From Eledone cirrhosa (Eukaryota), in contig OZ024745.1 of NCBI GenBank assembly GCA_964016885.1, positions 84,754,001 through 84,818,000 on the forward strand: 64,000 nt of DNA. The letters are read 5' to 3'. Position numbers and translations under genes: made by a program. The notes beneath the pieces were generated by a model. That model saw only the letters and a program-made list of their open reading frames with translations. It did no database searches and was not told the DNA's origin. Positions 36,001 to 60,448 of the stretch are shown piece after piece (the stretch's first letter is position 1; every line of letters starts with the position of its first letter).

Positions 36001-39000
36001 TTCGTGGGCCGAAATGCGAATTTCGATAATATATGTTTGTATTATTCTTAAGACTCTAGCAATTGACCAGTTAATTTTCTTGATTTTTTTAGTTGATTCT
36101 ATTGACAGAGTAATAGCTTATGTTAATTTTAACCCTTCTGTTGAGAACTCTATTCGATTTGTGATGTTTTTGCATTCTTGCAAAAATATAGAGGACTGAA
36201 TTCATACGGCTGATATAGGGGTTTCCTCCCTTGCCGATCCCCACGTGGGGTCAGCAATAGTCAGTCCTTGTATTAACATTGAACTAAAAGCTGTTGAGAA
36301 AGTGGCTTTCGTGTTCAATCATCTTACCAGCTGGCTGACGTTATTTATGTAAGCGGACGGTACTTGATTTAGGTTCCGCAGAAACCCATATACTGGATTT
36401 TACCAACCTTCCAGGGGTCCGTGTAAATTTTCAATACCCGAATTACTTGATCGTTTTTTTGGATATGCGAATGATTGTTTAACCATCGTCTCAGTGTGTT
36501 TGGCCTTTAACGTTTGTTATAGCTCTGGTTCATCTGAATCATTGTGCACTTGCCGCACATCTCGGAGGTTGTTTTTCGTTATTTCGTGGGTCGAAATGCG
36601 AATCTCGATAATTTATGTTTGTATTATTCTCCAAGCTCTAGCTATTGACCAGTTAATTTTCTTGATTTTTTTAGTTGATTCTATTGACTGATGAATAGCT
36701 TATGTTAATTTTAATCCTTCTGTTGAGAACTCTATTCGATTTGGGATGTTTTTGCATTCTTGCAAAAATATACACGACTGAATTCATACGGCTGATATAG
36801 GGGTTTCCTAACTTGCCGATCCCCACGTGGGGTCAGCAATAGTCATTCCTTGTATTAATATTGTACTAAAACCTCTTGAGAAAGTGGCTTCCTTGTTCAA
36901 TCATCTTACCAGAAGCCTGACATTATTTATGTAAGCGGACGGTACTTGATTTAGGTGCCGCAGAATCCCATATATTGGATTTTACCAACATTCCAGGGGT
37001 CCCGGTAAATTTTCAGTACCCGAATTACTTGATCGTTTTTTTGGATATGCGAATGATTGTTTAACCATCGTCTCAGTGTGTTTGGCCTTTACCGTTTGTT
37101 ATAGACCTGGTTCATCTGAATCGTCGAGCACTGCCGCATATCTCGAAGGTTGTTTTTCGTTATTTCGTGGGCCGAAATGCGAATTTCGATAATATATGTT
37201 TGTATTATTCTTAAGACTCTAGCAATTGACCAGTTAATTTTCTTGATTTTTTTAGTTGATTCTATTGACAGAGTAATAGCTTATGTTAATTTTAACCCTT
37301 CTGTTGAGAACTCTATTCGATTTGTGATGTTTTTGCATTCTTGCAAAAATATACACGACTGAAATCATACGGCTGATATAGGGGTTTCCTCCCTTGCCGA
37401 TCCCCACGTGGGGTCAGCAATAGACAGTCCTTGTATTAACATTGAACTAAAAGCTGCTGAGAAAGTGGCTTCCTTGTTCAATCATCTTACCAGCTGGCTG
37501 ACGTTATTTATGTAAGCGGACGGTACTTGATTTAGGTGCCGCAGAAACCCATATACTGGATTTTCCAACCTTCTAGGGCTCCGGGTAAATTTTCAATACC
37601 CGAATTAGTTGATCGTTTTTTTTTTGGATATGCGAATGATTGTTTAACCATCGTCTCAGTGTGTTAGGCCTTTACCGTTTGTTATAGCTATGGTTCATCT
37701 GAATCCTCGAGGACTTGCCGCACATCTCGAAGGTTGTTTTTCGTTATTTCGTGGACCAAAATGGCTTTCGTGTTCAATCATCTTACCAGCTGGCTGACGT
37801 TTGGATTTTACCAACCTTCCAGGGGTCCGGGTAAATTTTCAATACCCGAATTATTTGATCGTTTTTTTGGATATGCGAATGATTGTTTAACCATCGTCTC
37901 AGTGTGTTTGGTTTTTAACGTTTGTTATAACTCTGGTTCATCTGAATCATTGAGCACTTGCCGCACATCTCGGAGGTTGTTTTTCGTTATTTTGTGGGCC
38001 GAAATGCGAATCTCGATAATTTATGTTTGTATTATTCTCCAGACTCTAGCTATTGGCCAGTTAATTTTCTTGATGTTTTTATTTGATTCTATTGACTGAT
38101 GAATAGCTTATGTTAATTTTAACCCTCTGTTGAGAACTCTATTCGATTTGGGATGTTTTTGCATTCTTGCAAAAATATACACGACTGAATTCATACGCCT
38201 GATATAGGGGTTTCCTCCCGTGCCGATCCCCACGTGGGGTCAGCAATAGTCAGTCCTTGTATTAATATTGAACTAAAAGCTGTTGAGAAAGTGGCTTCCT
38301 TGTTCAATCATGTTACCAGCTGGCTGACATTATTTATGTAAGCGGACGGTACTTGATTTAGGTGCCGCAGAAACCCATATACTGGATTTGACCAAGCTTC
38401 CAGGGGTCCGGGTAATTTTCAATACCCGAATTACTTGATCGTTTTTTTTTTGGATATGCGAATGATTGTTTAACCATCGTCTCAGTGTGTTTGGCCTTTA
38501 CCGTCTGTTATAGCTCTGGTTCATCTGAATCCTCGAGCACTTGCCGCAAATCTCGAAGGTTGTTTTTCGTTATTTCGTGGGTCGAAATGCGAATCTCGAT
38601 AATTTATGTTTGTATTATTCTCCAGACTCTAGCAATTGACCAGTTAATTTTCTTGAATTTTTTTGTTGATTCTATTGACTGATGAATAGCGTATGTTAAT
38701 TTTAACCCTTCTGTTGAGAACTATATACGATTTGTGATGTTTTTGCATTCTTGCAAATATATACACGACTGAATTCATACGCCTGATATAGGGGTTGCCT
38801 CCCTTGCTGATCCCCACGTGGGTCAGCAATAGTCAGTCCTTGTATTAACATTGAACTACAACCTGTTGAGAAAGTGGCTTCTTTGTTCAATCATCTTACC
38901 AGAAGCCTGACATTATTTATGTGAGCGGACGCTACTTGATTTAGGAACCGCAGAAACCCATATACTGGATTTTACCAATTTTCCAGGGGTTCGGATAAAT

Positions 39001-42000
39001 TTTCAATACCCGAATTACTTGAACTTTATTTTGGATATGCGAATGATTTTTTAACCATCGTCTCAGTGTGTTTGACCTTTAACGTTTGTTATAGCCCTGG
39101 TTCATCTGAATCGTCGAGCACTGCCGCACATCTCGAAGGTTGTTTTTCGTTATTTCGTGGGCCGAAATGCGAATTTCGATAATATATGTTTGTATTATTC
39201 TTAAGACTCTAGCAATTGACCAGTTAATTTTCTTGATTTTTTTTGTTGATTCTATTGACTGAGTAATAGCTTATGTTATGTTGAGAACTCTATTCGATTT
39301 GTGATGTTTTTGCATTCTTGCAAAAATATACACGACTGAATTCATACGGCTGATATAGGGGTTTCCTCCCTTGCCGATCCCCACGTGGGGTCAGCAATAG
39401 TCAGTCCTTGTATTAACATTGAACTAAAAGCTGTTGAGAAAGTGGCTTTCGTGTTCAATCATCTTACCAGCTGGCTGACGTTATTTATGTAAGCGGATGG
39501 TACTTGATTTAGGTTCCGCAGAAACCCATATACTGGATTTTACCAACCTTCCAGGGGTCCGTGTAAATTTTCAATACCCGAATTACTTGATCGTTTTTTT
39601 GGATATGCGAATGATTGTTTAACCATCGTCTCAGTGTGTTTGGCCTTTAACGTTTGTTATAGCTCTGGTTCATCTGAATCATTGTGCACTTGCCGCACAT
39701 CTCGGAGGTTGGTTTTCGTTATTTCGTGGGTCGATATGCGAATCTCGATATGCGAATCTCGATCGTTATTTCGTGGCCGAAATGCGAATTTCGATAATAT
39801 ATGTTTGTATTATTCTCCAAGCTCTAGCTATTGACCAGTTAATTTTCTTGATTTTTTTAGTTGATTCTATTGACTGATGAATAGCTTATGTTAATTTTAA
39901 CCCTTCTGTTGAGAACTCTATTCGATTTGGGATGTTTTTGCATTCTTGCAAAAATATACACGACTGAATTCATATGCCTGATATAGGGGTTTCCTAACTT
40001 GCCGATCCCCACGTGGGGTCAGCAATAGTCAGTCCTTGTATTAACATTGAACTAAAACCTCTTGAGAAAGTGGCTTCCTTGTTCAATCATCTTACCAGAA
40101 GCCTGACATTATTTATGTAAGCGGACGGTACTTGATTTAGGTGCCGCAGAAACCCATATATTGGATTTTACCAACATTCCAGGGGTCCCGGTAAATTTTC
40201 AGTACCCGAATTACTTGATCGTTTTTTTGGATATGCGAATGATTGTTTAACCATCGTCTCAGTGTGTTTGGCCTTTACCGTTTGTTATAGACCTGGTTCA
40301 TCTGAATCGTCGAGCACTGCCGCATATCTCGAAGGTTGTTTTTCGTTATTTCGTGGGCCGAAATGCGAATTTCGATAATATATGTTTGTATTATTCTTAA
40401 GACTCTAGCAATTGACCAGTTAATTTTCTTGATTTTTTTAGTTGATTCTATTGACAGAGTAATAGCTTATGTTAATTTTAACCCTTCTGTTGAGAACTCT
40501 ATTCGATTTGTGATGTTTTTGCATTCTTGCAAAAATATACACGACTGAATTCATACGGCTGATATAGGGGTTTCCTCCCTTGCCGATCCCCACGTGGGGT
40601 CAGCAATAGACAGTCCTTGTATTAACATTGAACTAAAAGCTGCTGAGAAAGTGGCTTCCTTGTTCAATCATCTTACCAGCTGGCTGACGTTATTTATGTA
40701 AGCGGACGGTACTTGATTTAGGTGCCGCAGAAACCCATATACTGGATTTTACCAACCTTCCAGGGGTCCGGGTAAATTTTCAATACCCGAATTATTTGAT
40801 CGTTTTTTTGGATATGCGAATGATTGTTTAACCATCGTCTCAGTGTGTTTGGTTTTTAACGTTTGTTATAACTCTGGTTCATCTGAATCATTGAGCACTT
40901 GCCGCACATCTCGGAGGTTGTTTTTCGTTATTTTGTGGGCCGAAATGCGAATCTCGATAATTTATGTTTGTATTATTCTCCAGACTCTAGCTATTGGCCA
41001 GTTAATTTTCTTGATGTTTTTATTTGATTCTATTGACTGATGAATAGCTTATGTTAATTTTAACCCTCTGTTGAGAACTCTATTCGATTTGGGATGTTTT
41101 TGCATTCTTGCAAAAATATACACGACTGAATTCATACGCCTGATATAGGGGTTTCCTCCCGTGCCGATCCCCACGTGGGGTCAGCAATAGTCAGTCCTTG
41201 TATTAATATTGTACTAAAACCTCTTGAGAAAGTGGCTTCCTTGTTCAATCATCTTACCAGAAGCCTGACATTATTTATGTAAGCGGACGGTACTTGATTT
41301 AGGTGCCGCAGAATCCCATATATTGGATTTTACCAACATTCCAGGGGTCCCGGTAAATTTTCAGTACCCGAATTACTTGATCGTTTTTTTGGATATGCGA
41401 ATGATTGTTTAACCATCGTCTCAGTGTGTTTGGCCTTTACCGTTTGTTATAGACCTGGTTCATCTGAATCGTCGAGCACTGCCGCATATCTCGAAGGTTG
41501 TTTTTCGTTATTTCGTGGGCCGAAATGCGAATTTCGATAATATATGTTTGTATTATTCTTAAGACTCTAGCAATTGACCAGTTAATTTTTTTGATTTTTT
41601 TAGTTGATTCTATTGACTGATGAATAGCTTATGTTAATTTTAACCCTTCTGTTGAGAACTCTATTCGATTTGTGATGTTTTTGCATTCTTGCAAAAATAT
41701 ACACGACTGAATTCATACGGCTGATATAGGGGTTTCCTCCCTTGCCGATCCCCACGTGGGGTCAGCAATAGACAGTCCTTGTATTAACATTGAACTAAAA
41801 GCTGCTGAGAAAGTGGCTTCCTTGTTCAATCATCTTACCAGCTGGCTGACGTTATTTATGTAAGCGGACGGTACTTGATTTAGGTGCCGCAGAAACCCAT
41901 ATACTGGATTTTCCAACCTTCTAGGGCTCCGGGTAAATTTTCAATACCCGAATTAGTTGATCGTTTTTTTTTTGGATATGCGAATGATTGTTTAACCATC

Positions 42001-45000
42001 GTCTCAGTGTGTTAGGCCTTTACCGTTTGTTATAGCTATGGTTCATCTGAATCCTCGAGGACTTGCCGCACATCTCGAAGGTTGTTTTTCGTTATTTCGT
42101 GGACCAAAATGGCTTTCGTGTTCAATCATCTTACCAGCTGGCTGACGTTTGGATTTTACCAACCTTCCAGGGGTCCGGGTAAATTTTCAATACCCGAATT
42201 ATTTGATCGTTTTTTTGGATATGCGAATGATTGTTTAACCATCGTCTCAGTGTGTTTGGTTTTTAACGTTTGTTATAACTCTGGTTCATCTGAATCATTG
42301 AGCACTTGCCGCACATCTCGGAGGTTGTTTTTCGTTATTTTGTGGGCCGAAATGCGAATCTCGATAATTTATGTTTGTATTATTCTCCAGACTCTAGCTA
42401 TTGGCCAGTTAATTTTCTTGATGTTTTTATTTGATTCTATTGACTGATGAATAGCTTATGTTAATTTTAACCCTCTGTTGAGAACTCTATTCGATTTGGG
42501 ATGTTTTTGCATTCTTGCAAAAATATACACGACTTAATTCATACGCCTGATATAGGGGTTTCCTCCCGTGCCGATCCCCACGTGGGGTCAGCAATAGTCA
42601 GTCCTTGTATTAATATTGAACTAAAAGCTGTTGAGAAAGTGGCTTCCTTGTTCAATCATGTTACCAGCTGGCTGACATTATTTATGTAAGCGGACGGTAC
42701 TTGATTTAGGTGCCGCAGAAACCCATATACTGGATTTTACCAACCTTCCAGGGGTCCGGGTAAATTTTCAATACCCGAATTATTTGATCGTTTTTTTGGA
42801 TATGCGAATGATTGTTTAACCATCGTCTCAGTGTGTTTGGTTTTTAACGTTTGTTATAACTCTGGTTCATCTGAATCATTGAGAACTTGCCGCACATCTC
42901 GGAGGTTGTTTTTCGTTATTTTGTGGGCCGAAATGCGAATCTCGATAATTTATGTTTGTATTATTCTCCAGACTCTAGCTATTGGCCAGTTAATTTTCTT
43001 GATGTTTTTAGTTGATTCTATTGACTGATGAATAGCTTATGTTAATTTTAACCCTCTGTTGAGAACTCTATTCGATTTGGGATGTTTTTGCATTCTTGCA
43101 AAAATATACACGACTGAATTCATACGCCTGATATAGGGGTTTCCTCCCGTGCCGATCCCCACGTGGGGTCAGCAATAGTCAGTCCTTGTATTAATATTGA
43201 ACTAAAACCTGTTGAGAAAGTGGCTTCCTTGTTCAATCATCTTACCAGCTGGCTGACATTATTTATGTAAGCGGACGGTACTTGATTTATATCCCGCAGA
43301 AACCCATATACTGGATTTTACCAACCTTCCAGGGGTCCGGGTAAATTTTCAATACCCGAATTAGTTGATCGTTTTTTTTTTGGATATGCGAATGATTGTT
43401 TAACCATCGTCTCAGTGTGTTTGGCCTTTAACGTTTGTTATAGCTCTGGTTCATCTGAATCTTTGTGCACTTGCCGCACATCTCGGAGGTTGTATTTCGT
43501 TATTTCGCGGGCCGAAATGCGAATCTCGATAATTTATGTTTGTATTATTCTCCAGACTCTAGCTATTGACCAGTCAATTTTCTTGATTTTTTTAGTTGAT
43601 TCTATTGACTGATGAATAGCTATGTTAATTTTAACCCTTCTGTTGAAAACTCTATTCGATTTGTGATGTTTTTGCATTCTTGCAAAAATATACACGACTG
43701 AATTCATACGCCTGATATAGGGGTTGCCTCCCTTGCCGATCCCCACGTGGGGTCAGCAATAGTCAGTCCTTGTATTAACATTGAACTAAAACCTGTTGAG
43801 AAAGTGGCTTCCTTGTTCAATCATCTTACCAGCTGACTGACATTATTTATGTAAGCGGACGGTACTTGATTTAGGTGCCGCAGAAACCCATATACTGGAT
43901 TTTTCCAACCTTCCAGGGGTCCGGGTAAATTTTCTATACCCGAATTACTTGATCGTTTTTTTGGATATGCGAATGATTGTTTAACCATCGTCTCAGTGTG
44001 TTTGGCCTTTAACGTTTGTTATAGCTCTGGTTCATCTGAATCTTTGTGCACTTGCCGCACATCTCGGAGGTTGTATTTCGTTATTTCGCGGGCCGAAATG
44101 CGAATCTCGATAATTTATGTTTGTATTATTCTCCAGACTCTAGCTATTGACCAGTCAATTTTCTTGATTTTTTTAGTTGATTCTATTGACTGATGAATAG
44201 CTATGTTAATTTTAACCCTTCTGTTGAAAACTCTATTCGATTTGTGATGTTTTTGCATTCTTGCAAAAATATACACGACTGAATTCATACGCCTGATATA
44301 GGGGTTGCCTCCCTTGCCGATCCCCACGTGGGGTCAGCAATAGTCAGTCCTTGTATTAACATTGAACTAAAACCTGTTGAGAAAGTGGCTTCCTTGTTCA
44401 ATCATCTTACCAGAAGCCTGACATTATTTATGTAAGCGGACGGTACTTGATTTAGGTGCCGCAGAAACCCATATATTGGATTTTACCAACCTTCCAGGGG
44501 TCCGGGTAAATTTTCAGTACCCGAATTACTTGATCGTTTTTTTTTTGGATATGCGAATGATTGTTTAACCATCGTCTCAGTGTGTTTGGCCTTTACCGTT
44601 TGTTATAGCTCTGGTTCATCTGAATCCTCGAGCACTTGCCGCACATCTCGAAAGTTGTTTTTCGTTAGTTCGTGGCCCGAAATGCGAATCTCGATAATTT
44701 ATGTTTGTATTATTCTCCAGACTCTAGCTATTGATCAGTTAATTTTCTTGATTTGTTTAGTTGATTCTATTGACTGATGAATAGCTTATGTTAATTTTAA
44801 CCCTTCTGTTGAGAACTCTATTCGATTTGGGATGTTTTTGCATTCTTGCAAAAATATACACAACTGAATTCATTTGCCTGATATAGGTGTTGCCTCCCTT
44901 GCCGAACTCACGTGGGGTCAGCAATAGTCAGTCCTTGTATCAACATTGAACTAAAACCTGTTGAGAAAGTGGCTTCCTTGTTCAATCATCTTACCAGAAG

Positions 45001-47025
45001 CCTGACATTATTTATGTAAGCGGACGGTACTTGATTTAGGTGCCGCAGAAACCCATATACTGGATTTTACCAACCTTCCAGGGGTCCGGGTAAATTTTCA
45101 ATACCCGAATTACTTGATCGTTTTTTTGGATATGCGAATGATTGTTTAACCATCGTCTTAGTGTGTTTGGCCTTTACCGCTTGTTATAGCTCTGGTTCAT
45201 TTGAATCCTCGAGCACTTGCCGCACATGTCGAAGGTTGTTTTTCGTTATTTCGTGGGCCGAAATGCGAATCTCGATAATTTATGTTTGTATTATTCTCCA
45301 GACTCTAGCAATTGAACAGTTAATTTTTTTGATTTTTTTACTTGATTCTATTGACTGATGAATAGCTTATGTTAATTTTAACCCTTCTGTTGAGAACTCT
45401 ATTCGATTTGTGATGTTCTTGCATTCTTACAAAATATACACGATTGAATTTATACGCCTGATATAGGGGTTTCCTCCCTTGCCGACCCCCACGTGGAGTC
45501 AGCAATAGTCAGTCCTTGTATTAACATTGAACTAAAACCTGTTGAGAAAGTGGCTTCCTTGTTCAATCATCTTACCAGCTGGCTGACGTTATTTATGTAA
45601 GCGGACGGTACTTGAATTAGGTGCCGCAGAAACCCATATACTGGATTTTACCAACCTTCCAGGTGTCCGGGTAAATTTTCAATACGCGAATTACTTGATC
45701 TTTATTTTGGATATGCGAATGATTTTTTAACCATCGTCTCAGTGTGATTGACCTTTAACGGTTGTTACAGCTCTGGTTCATCTGAATCCTCGAGCACTTG
45801 CCGCACATCTCGAAGGTTGTTTTTCGTTATTTCGTGTACCGAAATGCGAATTTCGATAATATATGTTTGTATTATTCTTCAGACTCTAGCAATTGACCAG
45901 TTAATTTTCTTGATTTTTTTAGTTGATTCTATTGACTGAGTAATAGCTTATGTTAATTTTAACCCTTCTGTTGAAAACTCTATTCGATTTGTGATTTTTT
46001 GCATTCTTGCAAAAATATACACGACTGAATTCATACGCCTGATATAGGGGTTTCCTCCCTTGCCGATCCCCACGTGGGGTCAGCAATACTCAGTCCTTGT
46101 ATTAACATTGAACTAAAAGCTGTTGAGAAAGTGGCTTCCTTGTTCAATCATCTTACCAGAAGCCTGACATTATTTATGTAAGCGGACGGTACTTGATTTA
46201 GGTTCTTGTTGAAACCCATATACTGGATTTTACCAACCTTCCAGGGGTCCGGGTAAATTTTCAATACGCGAATTACTTGATCGTTTTTTTGGATATGCGA
46301 ATGATTGTTTAACCATCGTCTCAGTGTGTTTGGCGTTTAACGTTTGTTATAGCTCTGGTTCATCTGAATCATTGAGCACTTGCCGCACATCTCGGTCGTT
46401 GTTTTTCGTTATTTCGTGGGCCGAAATGCGAATCTCGATAATTTATGTTTGTATTATTCTCCAGACTCTAGCTATTGATCAATTAATTTTCGTGATTTTT
46501 TAGTTGATTCTATTGACTGATGAATAGCTTATGTTAATTTTAACCCTTCTGTTGAGAACTCTATTCGATTTGTGATGTTTTTGCATTCTTGCAAAGATAT
46601 ACACAACTGAATTCATTAGTCTTATATAGGGGTTGCCTCCCTTGCCGATCCCCACGTGGGGTCAGCAATAGTCAGTCCTTGTATTAACATTGAACTAAAA
46701 CCTGTTGAGAAAGTGGCTTCCTTGTTCAATCATCTTACCAGAAGCCTGACATTATTTATGTAAGCGGACGTACTTTATTTAGGAGCTACAGAAACCCATA
46801 TACTGGATTTTACCAACCTTCCAGGCGTCCGGGTAAATTTTCAATACCCGAATTACTTGTTCGTTTTTTTGGGGGAATATGAGAATGATTGTTTAATCAT
46901 CGGCTCACATGTGTGTGGCTTTTAACGTTTGTTATAGCTCTGGTTCATCTGAATCATTGAGCACTTGCCGCACGACTCGGATTATTTCGTGGGCGGAAAT
47001 ACGAATCTCGATAATTTATGTTTGT
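1..47025. repeat. Satellite DNA array, ~582-bp monomer, ~80 copies, runs off the left edge of the window
   Basis: The same monomer (tctattgactgatgaatagc...ccccacgtgggg...ttagttgat) recurs every 581-585 bp; ORF-track starts at 1549, 2132, 2714, 3296 etc. show the period. It ends abruptly at (TA)n near 47027. Confidence 0.99.
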
Positions 47026-47026
47026 T

Positions 47027-47052
47027 TATATATATATATATATATATATATA
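47027..47052. repeat. (TA)n microsatellite at the satellite edge
   Basis: Pure TA run read directly. Confidence 0.95.
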
Positions 47053-47344
47053 AAAACAAATAACGAAACGAAATTAAACTTCGTTTCGTTTGTAACTCAC
47101 TTTTGTATGACTGACGCTTAAACAATTAAGTTAAAAATGTACATCCACATATGTATACTGAAATACTAGTATGCATATGAATACAGACACGTGTACATAT
47201 GTAGATGTACCGAGTTTTTCACTGGTCACTTTACTGTGAGTGTCCAGCTATTCTGTATGTAAACACACAGACAAACCGGTTTTTAGAGTCATACTGGTTT
47301 TTGAGGAAACACCTTTCCTCTATTCTCCAGAAAGCCAGACAAGG

Positions 47345-47389
47345 AATATTGGACTAGTTTCGATGTTGTTACATCTCATCAGCAATATT
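47345..47389 (-). ncRNA. Type I hammerhead ribozyme (family A, inverted copy)
   Basis: Exact reverse complement of the hammerhead at 47763-47807. Confidence 0.93.
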
Positions 47390-47762
47390 TACCTATCTTC
47401 CGGCCTTTCTAGAGAATCGTAAAAGCACATATCGTTATATGCTTTTTCTATGAAAATTAGTAGTGGGCAGACCAATTTGCATAGAGCGTGAGTACGTACC
47501 GGTTCAACGGAGACGATAAAAACAAATAACGAAACGAAATTAAATTTCATTTTAACTTAATTGTTTAAGCGTCAGTCATACAAAAGTGAGTTACAAACGA
47601 AACGAAATTTAATTTCGTTTCGTTATTTGTTTTTATCGTCTCCGTTGAACCGGTACGTACTCACGCTCTATACAAATTGGTCTGCCCACTACTAATTTTC
47701 ATAGAAAAAGCATATAACGATATGTGCTTTTACGATTCTCTAGAAAGGCCGGAAGATAGGTA

Positions 47763-47807
47763 AATATTGCTGATGAGATGTAACAACATCGAAACTAGTC
47801 CAATATT
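47763..47807 (+). ncRNA. Type I hammerhead ribozyme (family A)
   Basis: AATATTG-CTGATGA-GATGT(AACA)ACATC-GAAA-CTAG-TC-CAATATT: 7-bp stem I, complete core, 5-bp stem II, palindromic stem III; predicted GUC cleavage after 47800. Stem I extends further (agaaaggccgg/ctggctttct). Confidence 0.95.
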
Positions 47808-48228
47808 CCTTGTCTGGCTTTCTGGAGAATAGAGGAAAGGTGTTTCCTCAAAAACCAGTATGACTCTAAAAACCGGTTTGTCTGTGTGTTTACATACAGA
47901 ATAGCTGGACACTCACAGTAAAGTGACCAGTGAAAAACTCGGTACATCTACATATGTACACGTGTGTGTATTCATATGCATACTAGTATTTCAGTATACA
48001 TATGTGGATGTACATTTTTAACTTAATTGTTTAAGCGTCAGTCATACAAAAGTGAGTTACAAACGAAACGAAATTTAATTTCGTTTCGTTATTTGTTTTT
48101 ATCGTCTCCGTTGAACCGGTACGTACTCACGCTCTATGCAAATTGGTCTGCCCACTACTAATTTTCATAGAAAAAGCATATAACGATATGTGCTTTTACG
48201 ATTCTCTAGAAAGGCCGGAAGATAGGTA

Positions 48229-48273
48229 AATATTGCTGATGAGATGTAACAACATCGAAACTAGTCCAATATT
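48229..48273 (+). ncRNA. Type I hammerhead ribozyme (family A, second tandem copy)
   Basis: Identical to 47763-47807, 466 bp downstream; predicted cleavage after 48266. Confidence 0.95.
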
Positions 48274-48495
48274 CCTTGTCTGGCTTTCTGGAGAATAGAG
48301 GAAAGGTGTTTCCTCAAAAACCAGTATGACTCTAAAAACCGGTTTGTCTGTGTGTTTACATACAGAATAGCTGGACACTCACAGTAAAGTGACCAGTGAA
48401 AAACTCGGTACATCTACATATGTACACGTGTGTGTATTCATATGCATACTAGTATTTCAGTATACATATGTGGATGTACATTTTAAACTTAATTG

Positions 48496-48526
48496 TATAT
48501 ATATATATATATATATATATAAATAT
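48496..48526. repeat. (TA)n microsatellite
   Basis: TA run separating family A from family B. Confidence 0.95.
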
Positions 48527-48677
48527 AAGAGTGGGAAATGAAATTTCGTTTCATTTTTTCCGTTTATCTATTTCGGTGCACCCGGCCGATTAACCCACTC
48601 GATATGCAAATTGGGCTTCTCAGCTGTTAATATGCATAAGGTAAGTATATACGTTCAGCAATCTGGCAGGAAGGTAT

Positions 48678-48720
48678 ACGTTGCTGACGATAGCTAATAA
48701 GCTTGAAACTAGTATAGCGT
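48678..48720 (+). ncRNA. Type I hammerhead ribozyme (family B)
   Basis: ACGTTG-CTGACGA-TAGCT(AATA)AGCTT-GAAA-CTAG-TA-TAGCGT; predicted GUA cleavage after 48714; U.U pair at the base of stem II. Stem I extends via gttcagca..ctggcagga..agg / cctttgtcagtgttgaac. Confidence 0.88.
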
Positions 48721-49097
48721 TCCTTTGTCAGTGTTGAACAAACGAGCAACGATGGTTGCTGGACACTACGGCTTAATACGGGATGTTTGTTTACAAACAC
48801 ACTGATCATTATAATAAATGTTCGGTGACTCCATACGTACATATATATATGTGTGCATGTATGTATATATATATACATACTACTGTACGTCTGTATACAT
48901 ATATGTATGTACGTGTACATACTTATATTTAAGTAACAGCCGTACCAAGAGTGGGAAATGAAATTTCGTTTCATTTTTTCCGTTTATCGTTTTCGGTGCA
49001 CCCGGCCGATTATCCCACTCCATATGCAAATTGGGCTTCTCAGCTGTTAATATACATAAGGTAAGTATATACGTTCAACAATCTGGCAGGAAGGTAT

Positions 49098-49140
49098 ACG
49101 TTGCTGACTATAGCTAATAAGCTTGAAACTAGTACAGTGT
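49098..49140 (+). ncRNA. Hammerhead ribozyme (family B, second copy) with a core mutation
   Basis: Core reads CTGACTA (G8 to U). The stem I 3' strand CAGTGT still pairs with ACGTTG. Confidence 0.75.
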
Positions 49141-49344
49141 TCCTTTGTCAGTGTTTAACAAACGAGCAACGATGGTTGCTGGACACTACGGCTTAATACG
49201 GGATGTTTTTTACTAACACACTGAGCATTATAATAAATTTTCGGTGAAACCATACGTACATATATATATATGTGTGCATGTATGTATATATATATATACA
49301 TACTACTGTACGTTTGTATACATATATGTATGTACGTGTACATA

Positions 49345-49516
<172 letters not shown>

Positions 49517-50595
49517 TAAGGATACTATTTATGGTTATGTATGTAATAAAACCTTTTATGGTAATATATTTTTCATACAAACCTTAAATAGTGAACGATA
49601 GTCATTAATTACTATCTTATTACCAGTAAGATAAATAGCTCAATGTAATAACATCGGTTGTTTTACAGAGCAGTTATATAGAGATTACAATAATCAAAGT
49701 TCAGTTTAAATTCTCTTACAATTGTTTCCTCCAAACCGAGGCTTGGATTTTCCGGAGCAACTATTTAGTGATCTATAACATACTTGACCTCCTTTTCAAC
49801 ACAAGAGACATATAAAACATATGCACATATTGATCCACAGTGGGATGACATCTAACAAAATGATATAGCATGGCAATTTACATATAAAGGTTACAAAATA
49901 AAAATAAAAATAAAAATAAAAGCGTTGGCAGTCTATAAAGCAAGAGGAAAGTTTAGAGTAGTCAGTGTATGAAACAATCTCACGTGTAGCATGCACGCGT
50001 GTCTTATTTATACAGGATTAGAGTGCAGGGTCAGGCAGTTGAAGCAGGCAATCGATATTATTATGTGGGCTGAATTATTAAGTCATTTATTCGCATATAC
50101 CTGTATGATATGCAGTCCCGAATGTAGAGAAACACCAAAATATCAAAAATTTCAAACATATTATAAACCATATTGTATCGTAGGCAAAACAGTACCACTG
50201 TCTTCGCTCACACCACCACTCACATAATCCATGAGACGCAATATATAGAACACGGGTCTATCATATAATTCACGATGGTTCGGCATATAACCAAGTTATA
50301 AACCGTATCTTGTCGATTCTTAATTAATAGATCACGTTATTTAGTTTTGTGTGATGATATTATATTCCGGAAGTGTCTGCATGACCAAGGGGAATTAATG
50401 CGTAAGGGGAGGTAACTAGCTGGTTTTCTTAGTTAAATTTATTATCCTAAATTACATTAATGGTGTTTCAAATAAGTGCCTATCATATGATGTTATAACT
50501 AATTTCTAGAATATGTTACTTATTTATAGGTTACTGTGTTGTCCATTAAGAAGTACTAGGGTGTATATATTAGGATGATTACCTTCCATTAAGGG

Positions 50596-51310
50596 GTGCC
50601 ATATCTGAACATTCTATAAGAGGAGTCAGACTCTCAAATCAATGTTCCATGTACATGTAATTCCTCCCGCAGGACCTGGTCCTATTATTATATATGACTC
50701 CCGGTAGGCTCTGGGTCATTGTATGTCCGAATCCTTGGTAAATCTGAATATCCTCAGGATGGTCCGGAGATCAAATTTCTCATATAAAGACACCAGTCTG
50801 GCCATCAAGCAATAGATTATCCCCATCTCATATATAAATTAATTTAGGTATCTTATCTACAAATTAGAGTAGAGTCTATTAATAGGTACTAAAGGAGTTC
50901 GTATCATGATGATTACAATCTGGAGATCAAATCTCTCATATAAGGACACCAGTCTGGCCATCAAGCAATACATAAACTCCCATCTTACATATAAATAAAT
51001 TAGGTATCTTATCTACAAATTAGAGTGGAGTCTATTAATAAGTACTAAAGGAGTTCATATCATGATGATTACAATCCAATATGGAGTGCCACACCTGGAC
51101 AATCTATAAGAAGAGTCAGACTACAAAATTAATTATATGGGTCTCACTACTAATAATGGACTTATTATCATACAAGACTCCCGGCAAGATTCAGGTCATA
51201 GTATGACTGCATCCCCGGTAAATTCACCAGGGTGGTCCGGTGACCAGTTCTCTCATCAAAAGATACCAATCAGGTCATCAAGCAACACAGAAACTCCTAA
51301 CTCATGTATC
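50596..51310. repeat. Diverged direct repeat (~334-bp unit) containing a younger 156-bp tandem duplication (50766-51076)
   Basis: gtgcca...ctataag.gagtcagact at 50596 and 51086; ggagatcaaat.tctcatataa at 50766 and 50922. Confidence 0.75.
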
Positions 51311-51976
51311 ACCTGTGCATAATTCACTGAACTGATCGTATATAGTATATATTCACATAACAATAAGATTACCTATCTAATCATCAATCTATCTCTTGGT
51401 GGCATTCCATGCACAGGATTATGTTATCACAACCAATACCGTGTCTACAGTTTATATTAATCATATATTTGTGCAATGCAGTTTAAGTAGTCCACGGCCG
51501 AGATATCAGAATTAGAAGTACATGGGGGTATTCCCAGGGTAGATGGTACTAAAATGCTGCCAGTATTACCCTTAGAGTATATAAATGGGTGTGGAGATGA
51601 GGTGTAAGGTGTGCTACTGATGCTAATTGCTGGGGGTGGTGACGGTTCCAGTCTGACATTGTTATATATAGGGTTTAAAGTTTTGGAACGAGTGTCGGAA
51701 GCGGTGTTGGCAAGATGCGAACACTTCTGATTTTTTATTAAGGAGATTACGGTTAGAGAAGATGATAGTATGGGTCTCTAGTAGACAGAGGTTACAAAAT
51801 TTATTAGGTGGTTTGTATGATGTTGCACTACCTACCACTTCCCATTTAAGTGTATATATTTTATTTTTAGTTTTTAGATAGTGTATGTAGCTAGATAGTG
51901 AAGTGGAGTTGGCTAGACTGTGTTTTTTGAAAGAGTGGAGGTGCGAATTGTATCTAGTTTTGAATTATTGTAATAT

Positions 51977-52427
<451 letters not shown>

Positions 52428-52508
52428 AAAAAAATCAATAATAATGAGTTCAAATCTCAGGCGATCATTTACAATGAAATAGCTCGAAGAAAGAGTATTT
52501 CTGAGCCG

Positions 52509-52980
52509 TGTAATATAGGTTAATATAAATCAATATATTTGATAAACACAAATATCCTCATATTTCTTTTTGTATTGTAAATGACCAAGTTAGCTAGATA
52601 GAAATATACTAATAATAATATTACAGTTTGCCTATCATAAATCAACAAAAACAAATTGTATTGGCAATGGCCGTAGTGCTTGGACAAATTTAAATTTCAA
52701 AATCAAACCTGTTCCGTAGACATATTTGGATTTTCAGGTTTAAACCTGTCTACGGAACAGGTTTGATTTTGAAATTTAAATTTGTCCAAGCACTACGGCC
52801 ATTGCCAATACAAATTGTTTTTGTTGATTTATGATGTATTATCTTAAGTCATGATAGGCAAACTGTAATATTATTATTAGTATATTTCTATCTAGCTAAC
52901 TTGGTCATTTACAATACAAACATAAATATGAGGATATTTGTGTTTATCAAATATATTGATTTATATTAACCTATATTACA
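52509..52980. repeat. Long inverted repeat (foldback): arms 52509-52722 and 52747-52980, 24-bp spacer
   Basis: tgtaatataggttaat...gttccgtagaca is mirrored by tgtctacggaac...cctatattaca; the right arm has ~20 bp extra near 52835-52853. Confidence 0.92.
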
Positions 52981-53096
52981 TATATATATATAGATAGATA
53001 GATAGATATAAATATATAACCAAGGAAATGTGGTAAGGAACCAGGTGGACCATAACGCACCAAAGTACTCAATACTTAGGCTAGTAGAGTGGGTAA

Positions 53097-53224
53097 TAGG
53101 AACGAGTAGGACGCCGACGGCTGAGCTCAAGCCGTTTGGACGGCTAATTCTGGACTAAAAAATTAGTCCAGAATTAGCCGTCGAAACGGCTTGGGCTCAG
53201 CCGTAAGCATCCTACTCGTTCCTG
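53097..53224. repeat. GC-rich 128-bp imperfect hairpin, ~62-bp stem, AAAA loop at 53159-53162
   Basis: taggaacgagtaggacgccgacggctgagctcaagccgtttggacggctaattctggactaa pairs with ttagtccagaattagccgtcgaaacggcttgggctcagccgtaagcatcctactcgttcctg. Confidence 0.92.
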
Positions 53225-53225
53225 T

Positions 53226-53298
<73 letters not shown>
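53225..53298. repeat. (TA)n microsatellite
   Basis: Read directly. Confidence 0.95.
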
Positions 53299-53305
<7 letters not shown>

Positions 53306-53795
53306 AAACATGTCTATAGAATCACAAGATAAAATATATACTATTTCCTCTCCCAATTAGGATAATTAACTATATAAAAATCGAATAGACCAGGCTATAA
53401 GAATGAGGCTTCTATGAAGGAATCTCCGACAAATAACCGAAACTAGCGCTTCGCATCGGCCGTAGCGGAATATTTATCGAATATTTCAACAGCGTAATCG
53501 TCCAGATATAGTCAACTAAACAGAATTAGGTGTAAAATAAACTAGGAGAAAATAGAATACATTTAAATACCTCTACCATGGTTTCGTCCGTGTTTTGAGT
53601 TTTCCAATAATTATGTAATAATTATATAAACTCGAGCGCTGTATTGTGCTGTGCTTTCTAGCAAAAATGCCACCAGTTGTAAGCAACTACCACGCCCCTT
53701 CCAACCTGACCGCGACTACGTCACGATTTTTAGCCATTTTGAAATGAATTCTTGGCGCGATCGCTTTGGAAAATTTAGTGTCTAGATAAGAGCGA

Positions 53796-53883
53796 GCTTC
53801 CTGATGAATCCGGCGCTCGAGTTTATATAATTATTACATAATTATTGGAAAACTCAAAACACGGACGAAACCATGGTAGAGGT
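53796..53883 (+). ncRNA. Type I hammerhead ribozyme (family C) with a long stem II
   Basis: GCTTC-CTGATGA-ATCCG...GAGTTT..ATAATTAT/ATAATTAT..AAACTC...CGGAC-GAAA-CCATGG-TA-GAGGT; palindromic stem III CCATGG; predicted GUA cleavage after 53878; A.C mismatch at the base of stem II. Confidence 0.8.
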
Positions 53884-54411
53884 ATTTAAATGTATTCTAT
53901 TTTCTCCTAGTTTATTTTACACCTAATTCTGTTTAGTTGACTATATCTGGGCGATTACGCTGTTGAAATATTCGATAAATATTCCGCTACGGCCGATGCG
54001 AAGCGCTAGCCTGGTCTATTCGATTTTTTATATAGTTAATTATGCTAATTCGGAGAGGAAATAGTATATATTTTATCTTGTGATTCTATAGACATGTTTT
54101 ATGATATATAGCTCTGATTGTTTAATTTATTAATTTTTCATTGAGCCACAAAGTGACCAGTTGCAAAACATGTATATGTATATGTATGTATATATATATA
54201 TATGTAAACTTTTATATATAATAATCTCTCCCATTAGGTTGAGATACAAATGTGGCTGTATTGTGCTGTGCTTTCTAGCAAAAATGCCACCAGTCGTAAG
54301 CAACTACCACACCCTTCCAACCTGACCGCGACTACGTCACGATTTTTAGCCATTTTGAAATGAATTCTTGGCATGATCGCTTTGAACAATTTAGTGTCTA
54401 GATAAGAGCGA

Positions 54412-54499
54412 GCTTCCTGATGAATCCGGCGCTCGAGTTTATATAATTATTACATAATTATTGGAAAACTCAAAACACGGACAAAACCATGGTAGAGGT
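54412..54499 (+). ncRNA. Hammerhead ribozyme (family C, second copy) with a core mutation
   Basis: Same as 53796-53883 except GAAA reads AAAA at 54483-54486 (G12 to A). Confidence 0.7.
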
Positions 54500-54879
54500 A
54501 TTTAAATGTATTCTATTTTCTCCTAGTTTATTTTACACCTAATTCTGTTTAGTTGACTATATCTGGGCGATTATGCTGTTGAAATATTCGATAAATATTC
54601 CGCTACGGCCGATGCGAAGTGCTAGTTTCGGTTATTTGTCGGATATTCCTTCATAGAAGCCTCATTCTTATAGCCTGGTCTATTCGATTTTTTATATAGT
54701 TAATTATGCTGATTGGGAGAGGAAATAGTATATATTTTATCTTGTGATGCTGTAGACATGTTTTATGATATATAGCTCTGATTGTTTAATTGTTTAATTT
54801 ATTAATTTTTCATTGAGCCACAAAGTGACCAGTTACAAAACACGTATATGTATATGTATGTATATATATATGTAAACTT

Positions 54880-54898
54880 TTATATATAAATATACATA

Positions 54899-54982
<84 letters not shown>

Positions 54983-54984
54983 CG

Positions 54985-55054
<70 letters not shown>

Positions 55055-55169
55055 AATGTATATATATATATATATGTATATATATGTATATATATGTATA
55101 TATATGTATATATATATATATATGTATATATATGTATATATATATATATGTAATGTATATATATATATG

Positions 55170-55264
<95 letters not shown>

Positions 55265-55277
55265 GTATATGTATATG

Positions 55278-55342
<65 letters not shown>

Positions 55343-55368
55343 GTATATATATATACATATGTATATAC

Positions 55369-55421
<53 letters not shown>

Positions 55422-55434
55422 CATATGTATATAC

Positions 55435-55479
<45 letters not shown>

Positions 55480-55494
55480 TACATATGTATATAC

Positions 55495-55541
<47 letters not shown>

Positions 55542-55546
55542 TATAT
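54880..55546. repeat. Interrupted (TA)n microsatellite
   Basis: Read directly. Confidence 0.97.
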
Positions 55547-55632
55547 AACTTTGAATAACTTTGAAATGTTTTGGCCAGTATTGGCCCAGGCCATGTCTAA
55601 CTTAATAGCACCACCTGGCGAAGTCTTTCAAT

Positions 55633-58600
55633 TCAGGATTTGGGCACCATGGCCCATTCGAGAAGAGAATTACTGTTTGCGGAGACATATCCGGGTGTGG
55701 GTGGTTTGTCCGGGATTACTTGGAGGAATTTGTCCAAAGACTTCTTGAATTTTGAGTGGTCAGTTTCTGTTTTGACGTGTCCTGGTGTGATGTTGAAGAG
55801 AGCAGGGCCGATTGAGGTGAAATAATTGTGCCGTATTGTTGTTATGAGTTGCGATTTAGATTTTTGAATGGGACGGATAGCACGGGGCCCAAGCCTTGGG
55901 TGTATCTTGAAGGCGATGCCAACATCATTTGGGCAGTGATGATGGAACATTTTCCACATCATGCAGATAATATAACGCTCACGGCGACGTTGGAGTGAGT
56001 AAAGTTTCAGGTTTTCCAATCGACCCCAGTAGTCAAGGTCTGACATGCCATCTATCTTTTTCGTGATTGCCCTTTGAGGAGCTTCAAGTTTCATGATACT
56101 TTGTTTCGTGTGGGGAGACCACAGTGGACAACAGTATTCAAGGTGTGGTCGGGCGAAAGTAGAGAAGAGAAGGATAATGGTGCGGGAATCTCTCGACTGG
56201 AAGGTTCTGAGGATCCAGGAACACATTCTGCGGGCCATGTCAACTTTGCTGCTTATATGCGTGGTCCAGCTTATGTTGCTGTCCACGGTTACTCCCAAGT
56301 CTCTGATGTTGTTAGATGCCACGAGAGTTTCCCCAGAGGGAAGGGAGTACGGGAGTTTCAGAGCATCCTCTTTTCCAAAGTGGATCAGTTCGAATTTGTC
56401 CTCGTTCAGTAACATGTTGTTCTTTTCTGCCCATTGGGTAACAGCCAGTAGGTCTGACTGAAGGCTTATCCGGTCATCCACGCCATTGATGACCTTTTGG
56501 AGCTTGGAATCATCAGCGAAAATTTTAATGTTGCTGTGTTTGATGATGTCAGTGATGTCATTAATATAGATGATGAAGAGAAGTGGGCCCAACACAGTGC
56601 CTTGTGGGACTCCACTACTGACTTTGGCTGCGCTTGATTTGACTCCCTCAACTACAACATGTTGGGTCCTGTTTGACAGGAAGCTCTTGATCCACTGCAG
56701 CAGCTTTCCAGTGACACCAATATTGGACAGCTTTCTCAGTAGAATGTTATGATCAACCCTGTCAAAGGCCTTGCTGAAATCAAGGTAGATAACATCAGTG
56801 TTGGAACCCTCTCCCAAGGCTCTCAAAATGTCATCAAAGTGATGCAGTAGTTGCGTCAGGCAATCCCTTCCATTACGGAATCCATGCTGGTTGGAGTTCA
56901 GCATATTGTTACTCTCAAGGAAGTGGGTCATTCGCGATCTCACCACTCGCTCAAATACCTTAATGATATGAGAGGTGAGTGAGATTGGACGGTAATTCAC
57001 GGCAAGGGATTTGTTTCCCTTTTTGAAAACTGGGACAACAGACTGGGATAGAAGGTTTTCTGGCACATATCCAGCATCCAGTGAGTTCTGCCACAGATTG
57101 GCAAGAGGAGAAGCAAGTTGGTGTTGACACGCCTTCAGGACACAAGCAGGGAACCTATCGGGACCTACTGCTGAATTATGCTTGATTTCCTTTATTGCCG
57201 CCAAGACATCAGGGGCGCCAAACGTTATGTCCGATAAGGTGTAATGGGGAGTAACATCGCCGATACAGCCCAGATCGGCCATATCAGGATTGCTGAAAAC
57301 AGAGCAGTATTGTTTCTGCAGTATCTCACCCATGGTTTTAGCATTGTCTTGAAGAGTGCCATTTTCATCAATTAGAGGGCCAACAGTAGAGCCAGTGATT
57401 TTGTGTTTTTTTGCAAATGAAAAGAACACTTTGGGATTGAGTTTGATCTTCTCAATGGCCCAGGCCTCTGCAGCTCTTCTCTGATTGTTGATGAGGGACA
57501 TTATGTTGTTTTGGAGGTTATGTTTTTTAATCTCTAGTGATGAAATGGCAGTCAAGTTGATGTGTTGCTGCTGACAGTATTTCAGCTTGTTGATTCTTTT
57601 GTTCGTTCTCTTAATTTTTCTGATGAGCGTTTTTCTATTTCTAGGGATTCTGCTCTTAGATTTGTTTATAGTTCTTAATGGGGTGTGTTTAGCACATATG
57701 TTTGTAACAGTGTCCACAAATGTCTGCCAGGACTTTTTGATGTTAGTGGGTGTATGAGTGTGCGTGAAGGACCAGTCGACATGTGCAAGATCATGACTGA
57801 TCGCTTCCCAGTTTGCATTGTGGAAATCCATAGCGTCAAACGGATGGACAGGAGAGATGACATTGGGTTTGTATATTGGACGGTGGAATCTCAGATCACA
57901 GAGAACCATGTCATGATCAGAGAGTAGAGTTTTCTCCACTGCAATATTGTGGATATTGTCAGTGTGATTGCTGAAAATTAAGTCTAGGACGTTTTTGTGG
58001 CACCTCGTTGGTTCGAGCACTAGTTGGGATAGGAAGAAATCATCCATGAACTCAAGAAGTGATTCCACAGCTTCCCTGTCAGAGGTTGAGGCAGAAGAAC
58101 CTGGTGGCAGGGTGTTTGTGGACCAGTCAACTCCGGGGAGGTTGAAGTCCCCCATCATTAAGATGTTGTCAGGGTGACACTCTTGGATGAAACACTTTAT
58201 GCTGTTGAGGCATTCCTTGAAGCATGGTACAGGCGTTTGGGGTGGCCTATAGAGCCCAACTACTAATAGGTTGTTGGTTTGACTGAATACAGTGACTGCC
58301 TCACAGTATCCATTAGTGAATATGTTCATAGCCTCTGTTGAGAAAGAATTATGGACATAAATGGCAGTTCCGCCCTTTCTTCTGCCAGCGCGATCAGCAC
58401 GGATGGCTTTGAAACTTTTCACTTTCACCTCGGCTTCCAAGTGGAGGTTACTGAGATGGGTTTCAGTGAGGACGAAGAAAGGGATGTGGTTTGGATGGAC
58501 ATCAATCCAGTCCTCCAGGAATTTGATCTTCCATTTTTGAGTATTGGTGGAAGGGCTGATGCCTTGGGCGTTAAGCAAAAATGTAGAGGCGAGAGTGGAT

Positions 58601-58653
58601 GGTTTTAATTGTTTTGGTGTGTTGTTAATTTGTTTGTTTGTTAATGGCAGCAA
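55633..58653 (-). CDS. LINE ORF2: apurinic-like endonuclease plus reverse transcriptase; the frame is open upstream to 58770
   Basis: EN motifs LLNAQGI, LTETHL, GLYRPP, MGDFNLP, LDLIFSN, SDH; RT motifs [48 protein letters not shown]; C-terminal [11 protein letters not shown]. 1006 codons without a stop. Confidence 0.97.
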
Positions 58654-59480
58654 TGGGAGTTTGTGCAGTGGGGTGATAGTGGAGGGTGGTGCTGGGTGAT
58701 AGCTCGAATGTTTTTTTCCAGTTCTTTTGCCAGATTCATTATGGCTAAAAAAGAGGAAGAAGTTTCCTGTTTAGAAGACTGTTGGTGACTGTGGTAGTGG
58801 TTATTTTTATGTAGGTTATGGTTTTTGTTTTTGCTTTTATTTTTAATTTTATTTTCATTTGTCCGACGGGTCCCCGGGAGATGGGTAAAGGGACAATCCC
58901 GGTCTAAACACAATCTGTCTCGCAGGGAAAAACGGCAGATTTGTGGATTCCTTGTTTGAGTTATTGGTGGTTGTGTTGGTGTTAAATTAGAGTATGTATT
59001 ATGGTGGTGGCTGTTTGTGGGGATAGATCGTTTTGTCCTAGGTAAATGGGTGAATTTGCAGCCACTATCCGTACATATTCTATAGCGTAGAGAGTAGCGG
59101 CAAATGATGGGGTTTCGAGTGGGTGGGTATGTGGGTGTGGGTGTTGTGAGAGGTGTAGATGATTGTTTGGGTAGGATTTGACGACCTTTGTGGACTGTGG
59201 GAGGGAGAGTTCTTGTTCTGGTATTAGAAGGTAAATTCCTTGACATAGCAGTAGACAAAAATGTTGTAGTAGTAGTAGTAGTAGTAGGCAGAGATGTTGG
59301 CAGTGGTGACCATTGTTGATGAATCAAGGAGTGGTTCACACTGTTGTTGTCGTTGTTGTTGTTGTTGCTGTTGTTGATGTTGTTGTTGTAGCTGTTGTTG
59401 TTGTAGCTGTTGTTGTTGTTGCTGTTGTAGCTGCTGTTGTTGTTGTTGCTGCTGCTGGACAGCATTCGAAGAGAAAACAC
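58641..59480 (-). CDS. LINE ORF1 (C-terminal part) with two C-x8-C-x4-C-x3-H zinc fingers; true start uncertain
   Basis: CRYSLRYRICTDSGCKFTH and CRFSLRDRLCLDRDCPFTH; lies immediately upstream of and overlaps ORF2. Confidence 0.8.
   Translation of the reverse strand: MFSLRMLSSSSNNNNSSYNSNNNNSYNNNSYNNNINNSNNNNNDNNSVNHSLIHQQWSPLPTSLPTTTTTTTTFLSTAMSRNLPSNTRTRTLPPTVHKGRQILPKQSSTPLTTPTPTYPPTRNPIICRYSLRYRICTDSGCKFTHLPRTKRSIPTNSHHHNTYSNLTPTQPPITQTRNPQICRFSLRDRLCLDRDCPFTHLPGTRRTNENKIKNKSKNKNHNLHKNNHYHSHQQSSKQETSSSFLAIMNLAKELEKNIRAITQHHPPLSPHCTNSHCCH
59266..59457. repeat. Trinucleotide tracts within ORF1: (GTA)n and (GTT/GCT)n
   Basis: Read directly; encode poly-T and poly-N/S or poly-Q depending on frame. 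Confidence 0.9.
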
Positions 59481-59702: not shown

Positions 59703-59713
59703 TCTAGTTTTGA

Positions 59714-60303: not shown

Positions 60304-60448
60304 TTGTTTGTTTGGTTTTGTCTTGTGGTTTTGTTTTGTGGCTGAGTTTTGTGGCTGTGTGACTTGCTGCTTACTCGGGGAGAGAAGTAAAAACACGTCC
60401 TTATACTTCAACTGCTCAACTGCTATATCAGTAAAACACATCCTTATA

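Follow-up and report, generated by a model that had tools for sequence, protein, structure and literature searches.

The family A insertion and its neighbourhood

The window analysed here, 64,000 nucleotides of Eledone cirrhosa contig OZ024745.1, opens with a satellite array of ~581-bp units (positions 1-47029) that are ~94% alike and give 81 matches to the last unit; the array has a break and a longer-range duplication near 37763-42150, and its terminal unit has diverged further (89% to the other units). This satellite was considered as a hammerhead array and rejected, the unit tested having no match to the hammerhead descriptor and no similarity to the family A element described below. Beyond the satellite lies microsatellite-rich DNA with several short tandems, and further two-unit tandems are found at 50763-51076 (156 bp), 59714-60189 (237 bp) and 60201-60304 (51 bp), of which the 156- and 237-bp ones have no hammerhead by descriptor. 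A LINE frame on the minus strand (55633-58770) is stop-free over 1045 codons and encodes an endonuclease and an RT domain; among named proteins the closest to it is one from Argonauta hians (60% identity), and its C-terminal end recurs in the opposite orientation at 60391-60864 (+), near 60860. Long palindromes beside (TA)n at 52509-52980 and 53098-53223 are possibly head-to-head PLE-type insertions.

At the edge of the array an insertion of ~1.45 kb, bounded by (TA)13 on the left and (TA)16 on the right, contains three copies of a 466-bp unit, family A (Table 1). The unit is 36% GC and non-coding, with longest stop-free frames of 57 codons (+) and 60 codons (-). Tandem-repeat search finds the direct arm at 47550-48496 with a period of 466, 2.0 copies and 99% matches, and by alignment it comprises 2.03 units. 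A first-pass annotation of this DNA had placed the element at 47549..48496; the tandem is real, but the element extends further, to an inverted copy of 1.08 units with an identical hammerhead that had been overlooked. The inverted copy covers unit position 51 (55 after a junction mismatch) through 466 and then 1 to 87, and its 3' end meets (TA)n in such a way that up to 3 bases fit either side. The unit-to-unit joints are direct, without an ORF piece or an internal region between LTRs, as in non-LTR retrozymes. A partial tandem, an inverted 5'-truncated head-to-head copy and a (TA)n target are together the anatomy described for PLE insertions (Craig et al. 2021, PMC8557442; Arkhipova et al. 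2013, PMC3846280).

The two full tandem units differ at one of 466 positions (47672 A / 48138 G), the 15-bp tail of the tandem has one further substitution at 48485, and the inverted copy differs from unit 1 at four places in 503, one of them at the junction; private differences are present in each of the three copies. Judged by these counts the insertion is young, as the first-pass annotation had concluded. Its observation that the ends lie off the cleavage site in an element of slightly more than two units also stands: the cut site is unit position 251, it is crossed by all three copies, and the insertion ends fall elsewhere.

Two other families lie nearby. Family B is related to A, with 292 identical bases among 410 aligned and a score of 320 (at most 129 in 100 shuffles). 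Its copy 1 (48684) has an intact hammerhead core and the triplet GUA, with U.U as the basal pair of helix II, and in copy 2 (49104) the core is broken by G8>U; monomer release from this older locus is improbable. Family C shares the anatomy of A, and no hammerhead was found in it by descriptor or Rfam.

Table 1. Coordinates of the family A insertion and of neighbouring features in the window
Feature	Position	Strand	Basis
(TA)13 tract separating the 581-bp satellite from the inverted copy (3' end); left-hand remnant of the target	47027..47052	.	repeat search, alignment
Inverted family A copy, 503 bp	47050..47552	-	self-alignment
Hammerhead 3, same sequence as hammerheads 1 and 2, C17 at 47352	47345..47389	-	alignment, Rfam, descriptor
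Point where the inverted and direct copies meet head-to-head, overlapping by 3 bases	47550..47552	.	alignment
Family A tandem unit 1, 466 bp	47550..48015	+	repeat search, alignment
Near-perfect 29-bp palindrome, long hairpin; position-87 end in U-rich single strand just 3'	47596..47624	+	alignment, folding
Type I hammerhead 1	47763..47807	+	Rfam, descriptor, folding
Predicted 466-nt monomer	47801..48266	+	circular folding
Family A tandem unit 2	48016..48481	+	repeat search, alignment
5-bp small hairpin; loop contains position 13-15 end	48022..48035	+	folding, alignment
Type I hammerhead 2, identical to hammerhead 1, C17 at 48266	48229..48273	+	Rfam, descriptor
Start of third unit, 15 bp; direct arm 3' end at unit position 15	48482..48496	+	alignment
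(TA)16 tract, right target remnant	48496..48527	.	repeat search
Family B, ~2 units of 420 bp related to A, flanked by (TA)n	48528..49351	+	alignment, score vs shuffles
PLE GIY-YIG endonuclease, C-terminal 100 codons, Hydra-clade type, 5'-truncated at (TA)n	51662..51964	-	phmmer, motifs
Family C: (TA)n, inverted partial copy, two ~617-bp tandem units, (TA)-rich end	53295-54889		self-alignment

The hammerhead and its predicted folding

Two consecutive tandem units each contain a complete type I hammerhead, as is typical of non-LTR retrozymes. The first-pass annotation had called them intact and identical, with perfect cores and cleavage sites exactly one unit apart, and this is confirmed: they are letter-identical and complete, with GUC cut triplets and C17 at 47800 and 48266, 466 nt apart. 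Read in order, a helix I of 7 Watson-Crick pairs precedes the core CUGAUGA, then comes helix II, whose 5 pairs are capped by the loop AACA, and after it GAAA, CUAG, U and C17; in hammerhead 1 helix I is 47763-69/47801-07, the core 47770-76 and helix II 47777-90, followed by GAAA and by the palindromic ACUAGU (47794-99) that adjoins C17. A strict hammerhead descriptor finds three sites in 47029-64000 and none in any of 300 block shuffles. Rfam Hammerhead_HH9 (RF02275) matches at 47752-47823, 48218-48289 and 47329-47400(-) with E 9.3e-08 and 38.9 bits, which is below its gathering score of 52; five model positions of loop III are missing in family A, which shares with HH9 and with the newt/axolotl satellite-2 type hammerheads the core, the helix sizes, a palindromic helix III favouring dimers and a helix I internal loop facing loop II. 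At the gathering level Rfam has 0 matches in the whole window, and the miRNA-family matches seen at looser thresholds are all below cut-offs and located on hairpins and TA repeats. Both Rfam and the descriptor confine the hammerhead to one strand of the family A unit, and the window holds integrated genomic copies, neither of which is the pattern of a viroid-like infectious circular RNA.

When family A is compared with family B copy 1 over the 12 pairs of helices I and II, four pairs are changed on both sides yet still paired, two become G-U, four are unchanged and two become U.U; within family A, a helix II pair flips from A-U to U-A in sequencing runs X1 and X14. Because these compensatory changes occur both between A and B and within A, the ribozyme fold has been preserved in a non-coding element. 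Among the variants listed, 17 family A variants (leaving out row 47186, which is private to the inverted copy) break a predicted pair in 3 cases vs 6.0 expected, which is not significant (P = 0.053). At the cut site (47352) 81% of the depth in run X1 is GUU, not GUC, and by depth in that run the window's family A copies are assignable to a minority subfamily. A GUU triplet cleaves more slowly than GUC.

Folded as a circle, the predicted 466-nt monomer has a minimum free energy of -154.2 kcal/mol (z -9.3), and none of 60 dinucleotide shuffles is equally stable; the opposite strand gives -127.2 kcal/mol (z -6.2). Both hammerhead helices are formed in the circular fold (pair probabilities 0.66-0.98 for helix I and 0.9-1.0 for helix II), and the model thus predicts what is expected of a non-LTR retrozyme, a highly self-paired circle with accessible hammerhead helices. 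Within one molecule helix III would enclose a loop of only 2 nt, and the palindrome ACUAGU allows a 6-bp duplex. This fits the dimer rule given for motifs of this kind (Cervera and de la Pena 2014, PMC4209133) and upholds the argument of the first-pass annotation that a CTAG stem III implies cleavage through a dimeric double hammerhead. In the tandem, the double hammerhead lies 6.9 kcal/mol above the free fold of -324.0, tertiary contacts being outside the model; it is not the free minimum, and the helix III dimer pairs have a probability near zero (0.0) in the unconstrained ensemble. One of nine Xenopus retrozyme dimers is reported to be cleaved in vitro and eight are not (bioRxiv 10.64898/2026.07.22.740005). 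We think it somewhat more likely than not that family A cuts as a dimer. In a transcript that includes the inverted arm, 496 of 500 bases are predicted to pair with the inverted copy, so that hammerhead 1 is buried in a 500-bp hairpin and the modelled penalty for the double hammerhead is 144 kcal/mol; because read-through transcripts pair in this way, release of the 466-nt RNA would require a transcription start inside the tandem.

Insertion ends, spread and a nearby PLE remnant

The (TA)n-joined 3' ends in the window lie at unit position 15 in the direct arm and 87 in the inverted arm. Loose contig ends were compared on 46460-47552 in sequencing runs X1, X4, X14 and X23, and we describe here the best 11 of 116; six of these are from X1, and three of the six are in family A, the third being a single diverged contig. 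Positions 13 (47124, 2 contigs) and 87 (47516, 10 contigs, agreement 0.72) are the only (TA)n-joined X1 ends among these 11, and none of the 11 is at the cut site. The 3' ends of family A therefore look fixed at two places, as far as these contigs go; the two recurring ends among the 11 of 116 are ~72 nt apart, where a PLE tail is expected to be 30-40 bp. The position 13-15 end is in the loop of a small hairpin that follows the long hairpin, and family B ends in a matching hairpin. The X1 satellite carries the window-array letter at 9 of 17 variant places, and X1 may be from the same species or sample as the window, in which case it is not independent. A reading of the satellite differences as marking X1 as another species was dropped, since at those 9 places the X1 letter also occurs in the window's own array.

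A PLE enzyme has been found to start reverse transcription at two fixed internal sites on uncut RNA and to extend both DNA strands, with no need of hammerhead cleavage (Frangieh et al. 2024, PMC11167929); the Anolis PLE inserts from uncut RNA, and no reads start or stop at its cut site. Fixed ends suit a circle and an uncut multimer alike, because the PLE enzyme starts internally. The first-pass annotation had read the permuted ends as a mark of rolling reverse transcription of a circular template, and had taken fixed ends across genomic copies as evidence for a linear one. The first of these readings is not sustained, since the 3' ends look fixed, PLE reverse transcription starts internally on uncut RNA, and family C has the same anatomy without a detectable hammerhead. 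As to the second, the comparison of end phases did find ends that look fixed, recurring in X1, but fixed ends do not refute a circle and so do not discriminate between the templates. Since each of the three copies runs across the cut site, and no listed loose end lies there, a linear monomer produced by cleavage can be rejected as the (sole) template; a circle, having no 3' end to prime on, would need an internally starting enzyme. The chances that a circle, and not an uncut multimer, is the main template appear to us evenly balanced. We suggest tentatively, and with somewhat less than even confidence, that the fixed 3' ends may be the first genomic footprint of a PLE enzyme copying an end-less retrozyme circle by internal initiation. 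Searches of a largely open-access literature, main texts only, brought up no account of fixed retrozyme ends.

Family A is dispersed and multicopy, as non-LTR retrozymes are, with 1746 contigs in X1, in which alleles of several subfamilies occur and loose ends run into (TA)n. Summed depth in X1, which is not a copy number, is 139,000-587,000 on family A vs 1,150-69,000 on the satellite. Words of the unit occur in 20 of the 24 listed runs, from 16 studies and under 17 organism labels, and seven runs have at least half of the words; the word shares of 0.00 in X21 and X22 are no proof of absence. None of the listed holders is an RNA run, a fact that carries no information about expression. Contigs were examined in three of the 20 holder runs (X1, X4 and X14), only two of which are outside organism A. 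Run X4 (organism B) has one self-looping contig of 495 nt (465+30) at depth 9.7, which is ~99% alike (5 substitutions and 1 gap) and has no flank and no satellite. The 12 contigs of X14 (organism K; depth 2-27) are alleles of the X1 main subfamily and are accompanied by a depth-2 piece of host satellite. Among the Hi-C raw reads of X23 (organism D; ~1/100 of the run, from a sample that differs from that of holder X6) 0 reads matched, which speaks neither for nor against presence there.

A separate insertion 3 kb from family A contains the endonuclease remnant of a PLE, that is, the host carries PLEs. Phmmer gives the remnant 2825 protein relatives at E<=0.001 and the motifs CxxC, E, N and CxH are present; word-based search gave nothing and Pfam only a sub-threshold match. 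One of four relatives scanned, P0153, has Pfam GIY-YIG above the cut-off, and the relative P0149 (696 aa) has DKT, YIG, CxxC and CxH and fits the Hydra description, with no exact match to the patterns for RWK and CxCX5C. No canonical hammerhead is found in the 2 kb downstream of the remnant. We note that two of four Hydra-type PLE loci related to P0149 (metagenome contigs) have a hammerhead-like motif outside the ORF, at L003:118 and L004:1203. Neither A nor B has nucleotide similarity to the DNA downstream of the remnant at E<=0.5 or to the four Hydra-type loci at E<=0.1, and the pairing of family A with a PLE is one of target and anatomy, because no DNA similarity links them. Almost all Hydra-clade families are described as inserting into (TA)n and as having canonical hammerheads (PMC8557442), and a Hydra-clade PLE is plausibly the kind of enzyme that mobilises family A. 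Family A is not itself an autonomous EN+ PLE; its unit has no ORF, and PLE pieces match only the separate remnant.

Proposed mode of copying and relation to known elements

We consider it very likely that family A is a retrozyme-type element moved by a PLE. The fuller reading, that this is a young insertion of a high-copy non-autonomous non-LTR retrozyme, and that the PLE enzyme copying it targets (TA)n and plausibly belongs to the Hydra clade, is one that we favour with a little better than even confidence. Tandem loci would be transcribed from a start inside the array, and neighbouring hammerheads, whose anatomy is present in the tandem, would pair through ACUAGU into a double hammerhead, cut after position 251 and free the 466-nt RNA. 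A host RtcB-type ligase would close the highly paired circle, in which a lone hammerhead without helix III would be quiet (by analogy with PMC7229834). A PLE protein would nick (TA)n and start reverse transcription from one of two fixed U-rich sites (positions 13-15 and 87), not from an RNA end, and continue past the cut site over a length exceeding one unit; the ends and the read-through are both visible in the copies. Priming on both strands, or fold-back of the first cDNA, could then give the two head-to-head arms that are observed.

The closest alternative is that family A derives from a PLE, is non-autonomous and is copied from linear multimeric transcripts that stay uncut, its hammerhead being inherited from a pLTR or acting only as a transcript trimmer, any circles being by-products, and its tandems the result of tandem-locus read-through or template jumps. 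Internal initiation on uncut RNA in vitro (PMC11167929), the fixed 3' ends, the hammerhead-less anatomy of family C and the broken core in family B copy 2 are all in its favour, as are the non-autonomous Chlamys elements, which make multicopy head-to-tail insertions though Chlamys is described as mostly lacking hammerheads (PMC8557442). The compensatory changes by which the ribozyme fold is preserved, between A and B as well as inside A, imply, however, that cutting is useful to this ORF-less element, the unit as a whole folds into a highly paired circle, and related coral, mussel and axolotl elements accumulate as circles (PMC7229834); we regard this alternative as possible but less than probable. 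It is improbable, in our view, that the copies are not an independent family but stranded pseudo-LTRs of an autonomous PLE that lost its ORF by 5' truncation. Among 57 Xenopus families 24 matched 22 TEs, 21 of them PLEs, indicating retrozyme-pLTR homology (bioRxiv 10.64898/2026.07.22.740005), truncated PLEs with short-range opposite-strand hammerhead pairs have been described (PMC4209133), and a PLE remnant is nearby. Against this, the unit joints lack any ORF piece and the longest frames are 57-60 codons, 150 PLE protein pieces match only the remnant in the window, the share of X1 contigs continuing unlike the stretch is 0 and no listed loose end (11 of 116) enters an ORF, and the hammerhead is of canonical size (helix I 7 bp, helix II 5 bp) vs the minimal PLE form (PMC4209133).

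The occurrence of near-identical unit words under 17 organism labels, with seven runs having at least half of them, and the flankless unit-length loop in X4 would also be seen if the unit moved between animal species as an infectious or horizontally transferred circle, viroid-like and outside its genome. This is very improbable: the X14 alleles of the X1 main subfamily, with their satellite trace, are as expected of trace DNA from an element-rich organism, the flankless low-depth loop of X4 is equally expected from trace DNA, and the hammerhead pattern has 0, 0 and 0 matches in viral, metagenome and prokaryote collections. Because the summed depth in X1 is very high, trace DNA from a highly element-rich host is the simplest reading of the spread across runs; searches of a largely open-access literature brought up no account of an animal retrozyme spreading horizontally. 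Duplication and inversion at the DNA level (unequal exchange or fold-back repair), or an assembly artefact built from one copy, might be proposed on the grounds that the copies are near-identical and the region is rich in satellites and microsatellites. Such an origin is extremely improbable, since both outer ends match (TA)n-joined ends in other contigs, contigs of X4 and X14 also contain the unit-to-unit joint, private differences occur in each copy, and family C repeats the same anatomy.

To return to the reading of family A as a retrozyme copied by a PLE enzyme, at the level of sequence family A has every feature of the non-LTR retrozymes (Cervera and de la Pena 2020) and of the working definition of Li et al. 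Like the metazoan elements (PMC7229834; bioRxiv 10.64898/2026.07.22.740005) it is a non-coding tandem with one type I hammerhead per unit, a weak palindromic helix III, a GC content below 50%, a strongly paired predicted circle with free hammerhead helices, and co-occurring PLEs. Its 466-bp unit is just above the 150-450 bp given in 2020 (PMC7229834) and falls within the range of 51-972 bp given by the 2026 preprint. For the retrozymes of coral, mussel and axolotl, expression, cleavage and circular RNA have been demonstrated (PMC7229834); family A is described here at the level of sequence. The inverted head-to-head 5' copy, the (TA)n targeting and the fixed 3' ends of family A are unreported for retrozymes in the available main text of PMC7229834 and the 2026 preprint.

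With the EN+ PLEs of the Hydra clade, as they are described, family A shares a partial tandem, an inverted 5'-truncated copy at the 5' end, a palindrome near the junction, a (TA)n target, a hammerhead and alternative 3' ends. Unlike them it has no RT or endonuclease ORF and its 3' ends are spaced more widely than the expected tail; neither the DNA downstream of the remnant nor the four foreign loci showed a sequence link between family A and a pLTR. The Poseidon PLE of Anolis carolinensis (PMC11167929) likewise has two fixed internal RT starts downstream of its hammerhead, in or near a stem-loop, and an AT-rich target at which it extends both DNA strands. Poseidon is autonomous, its AC-rich start sites are inside the ORF and its hammerhead is dispensable in vitro, whereas the start sites of family A would be U-rich and lie 230 and 302 nt past the cut site.

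In their available text, PMC7229834, PMC7761336 and the 2026 preprint leave open both the mobilising enzyme of retrozymes and the question of whether the circle is the template. The retrozyme class is already known, and the value of this locus is as a well-marked test case: it combines the canonical unit of a retrozyme with three signatures of PLEs, namely the inverted arm, the (TA)n target and the fixed internal 3' ends, and it names a candidate PLE clade.
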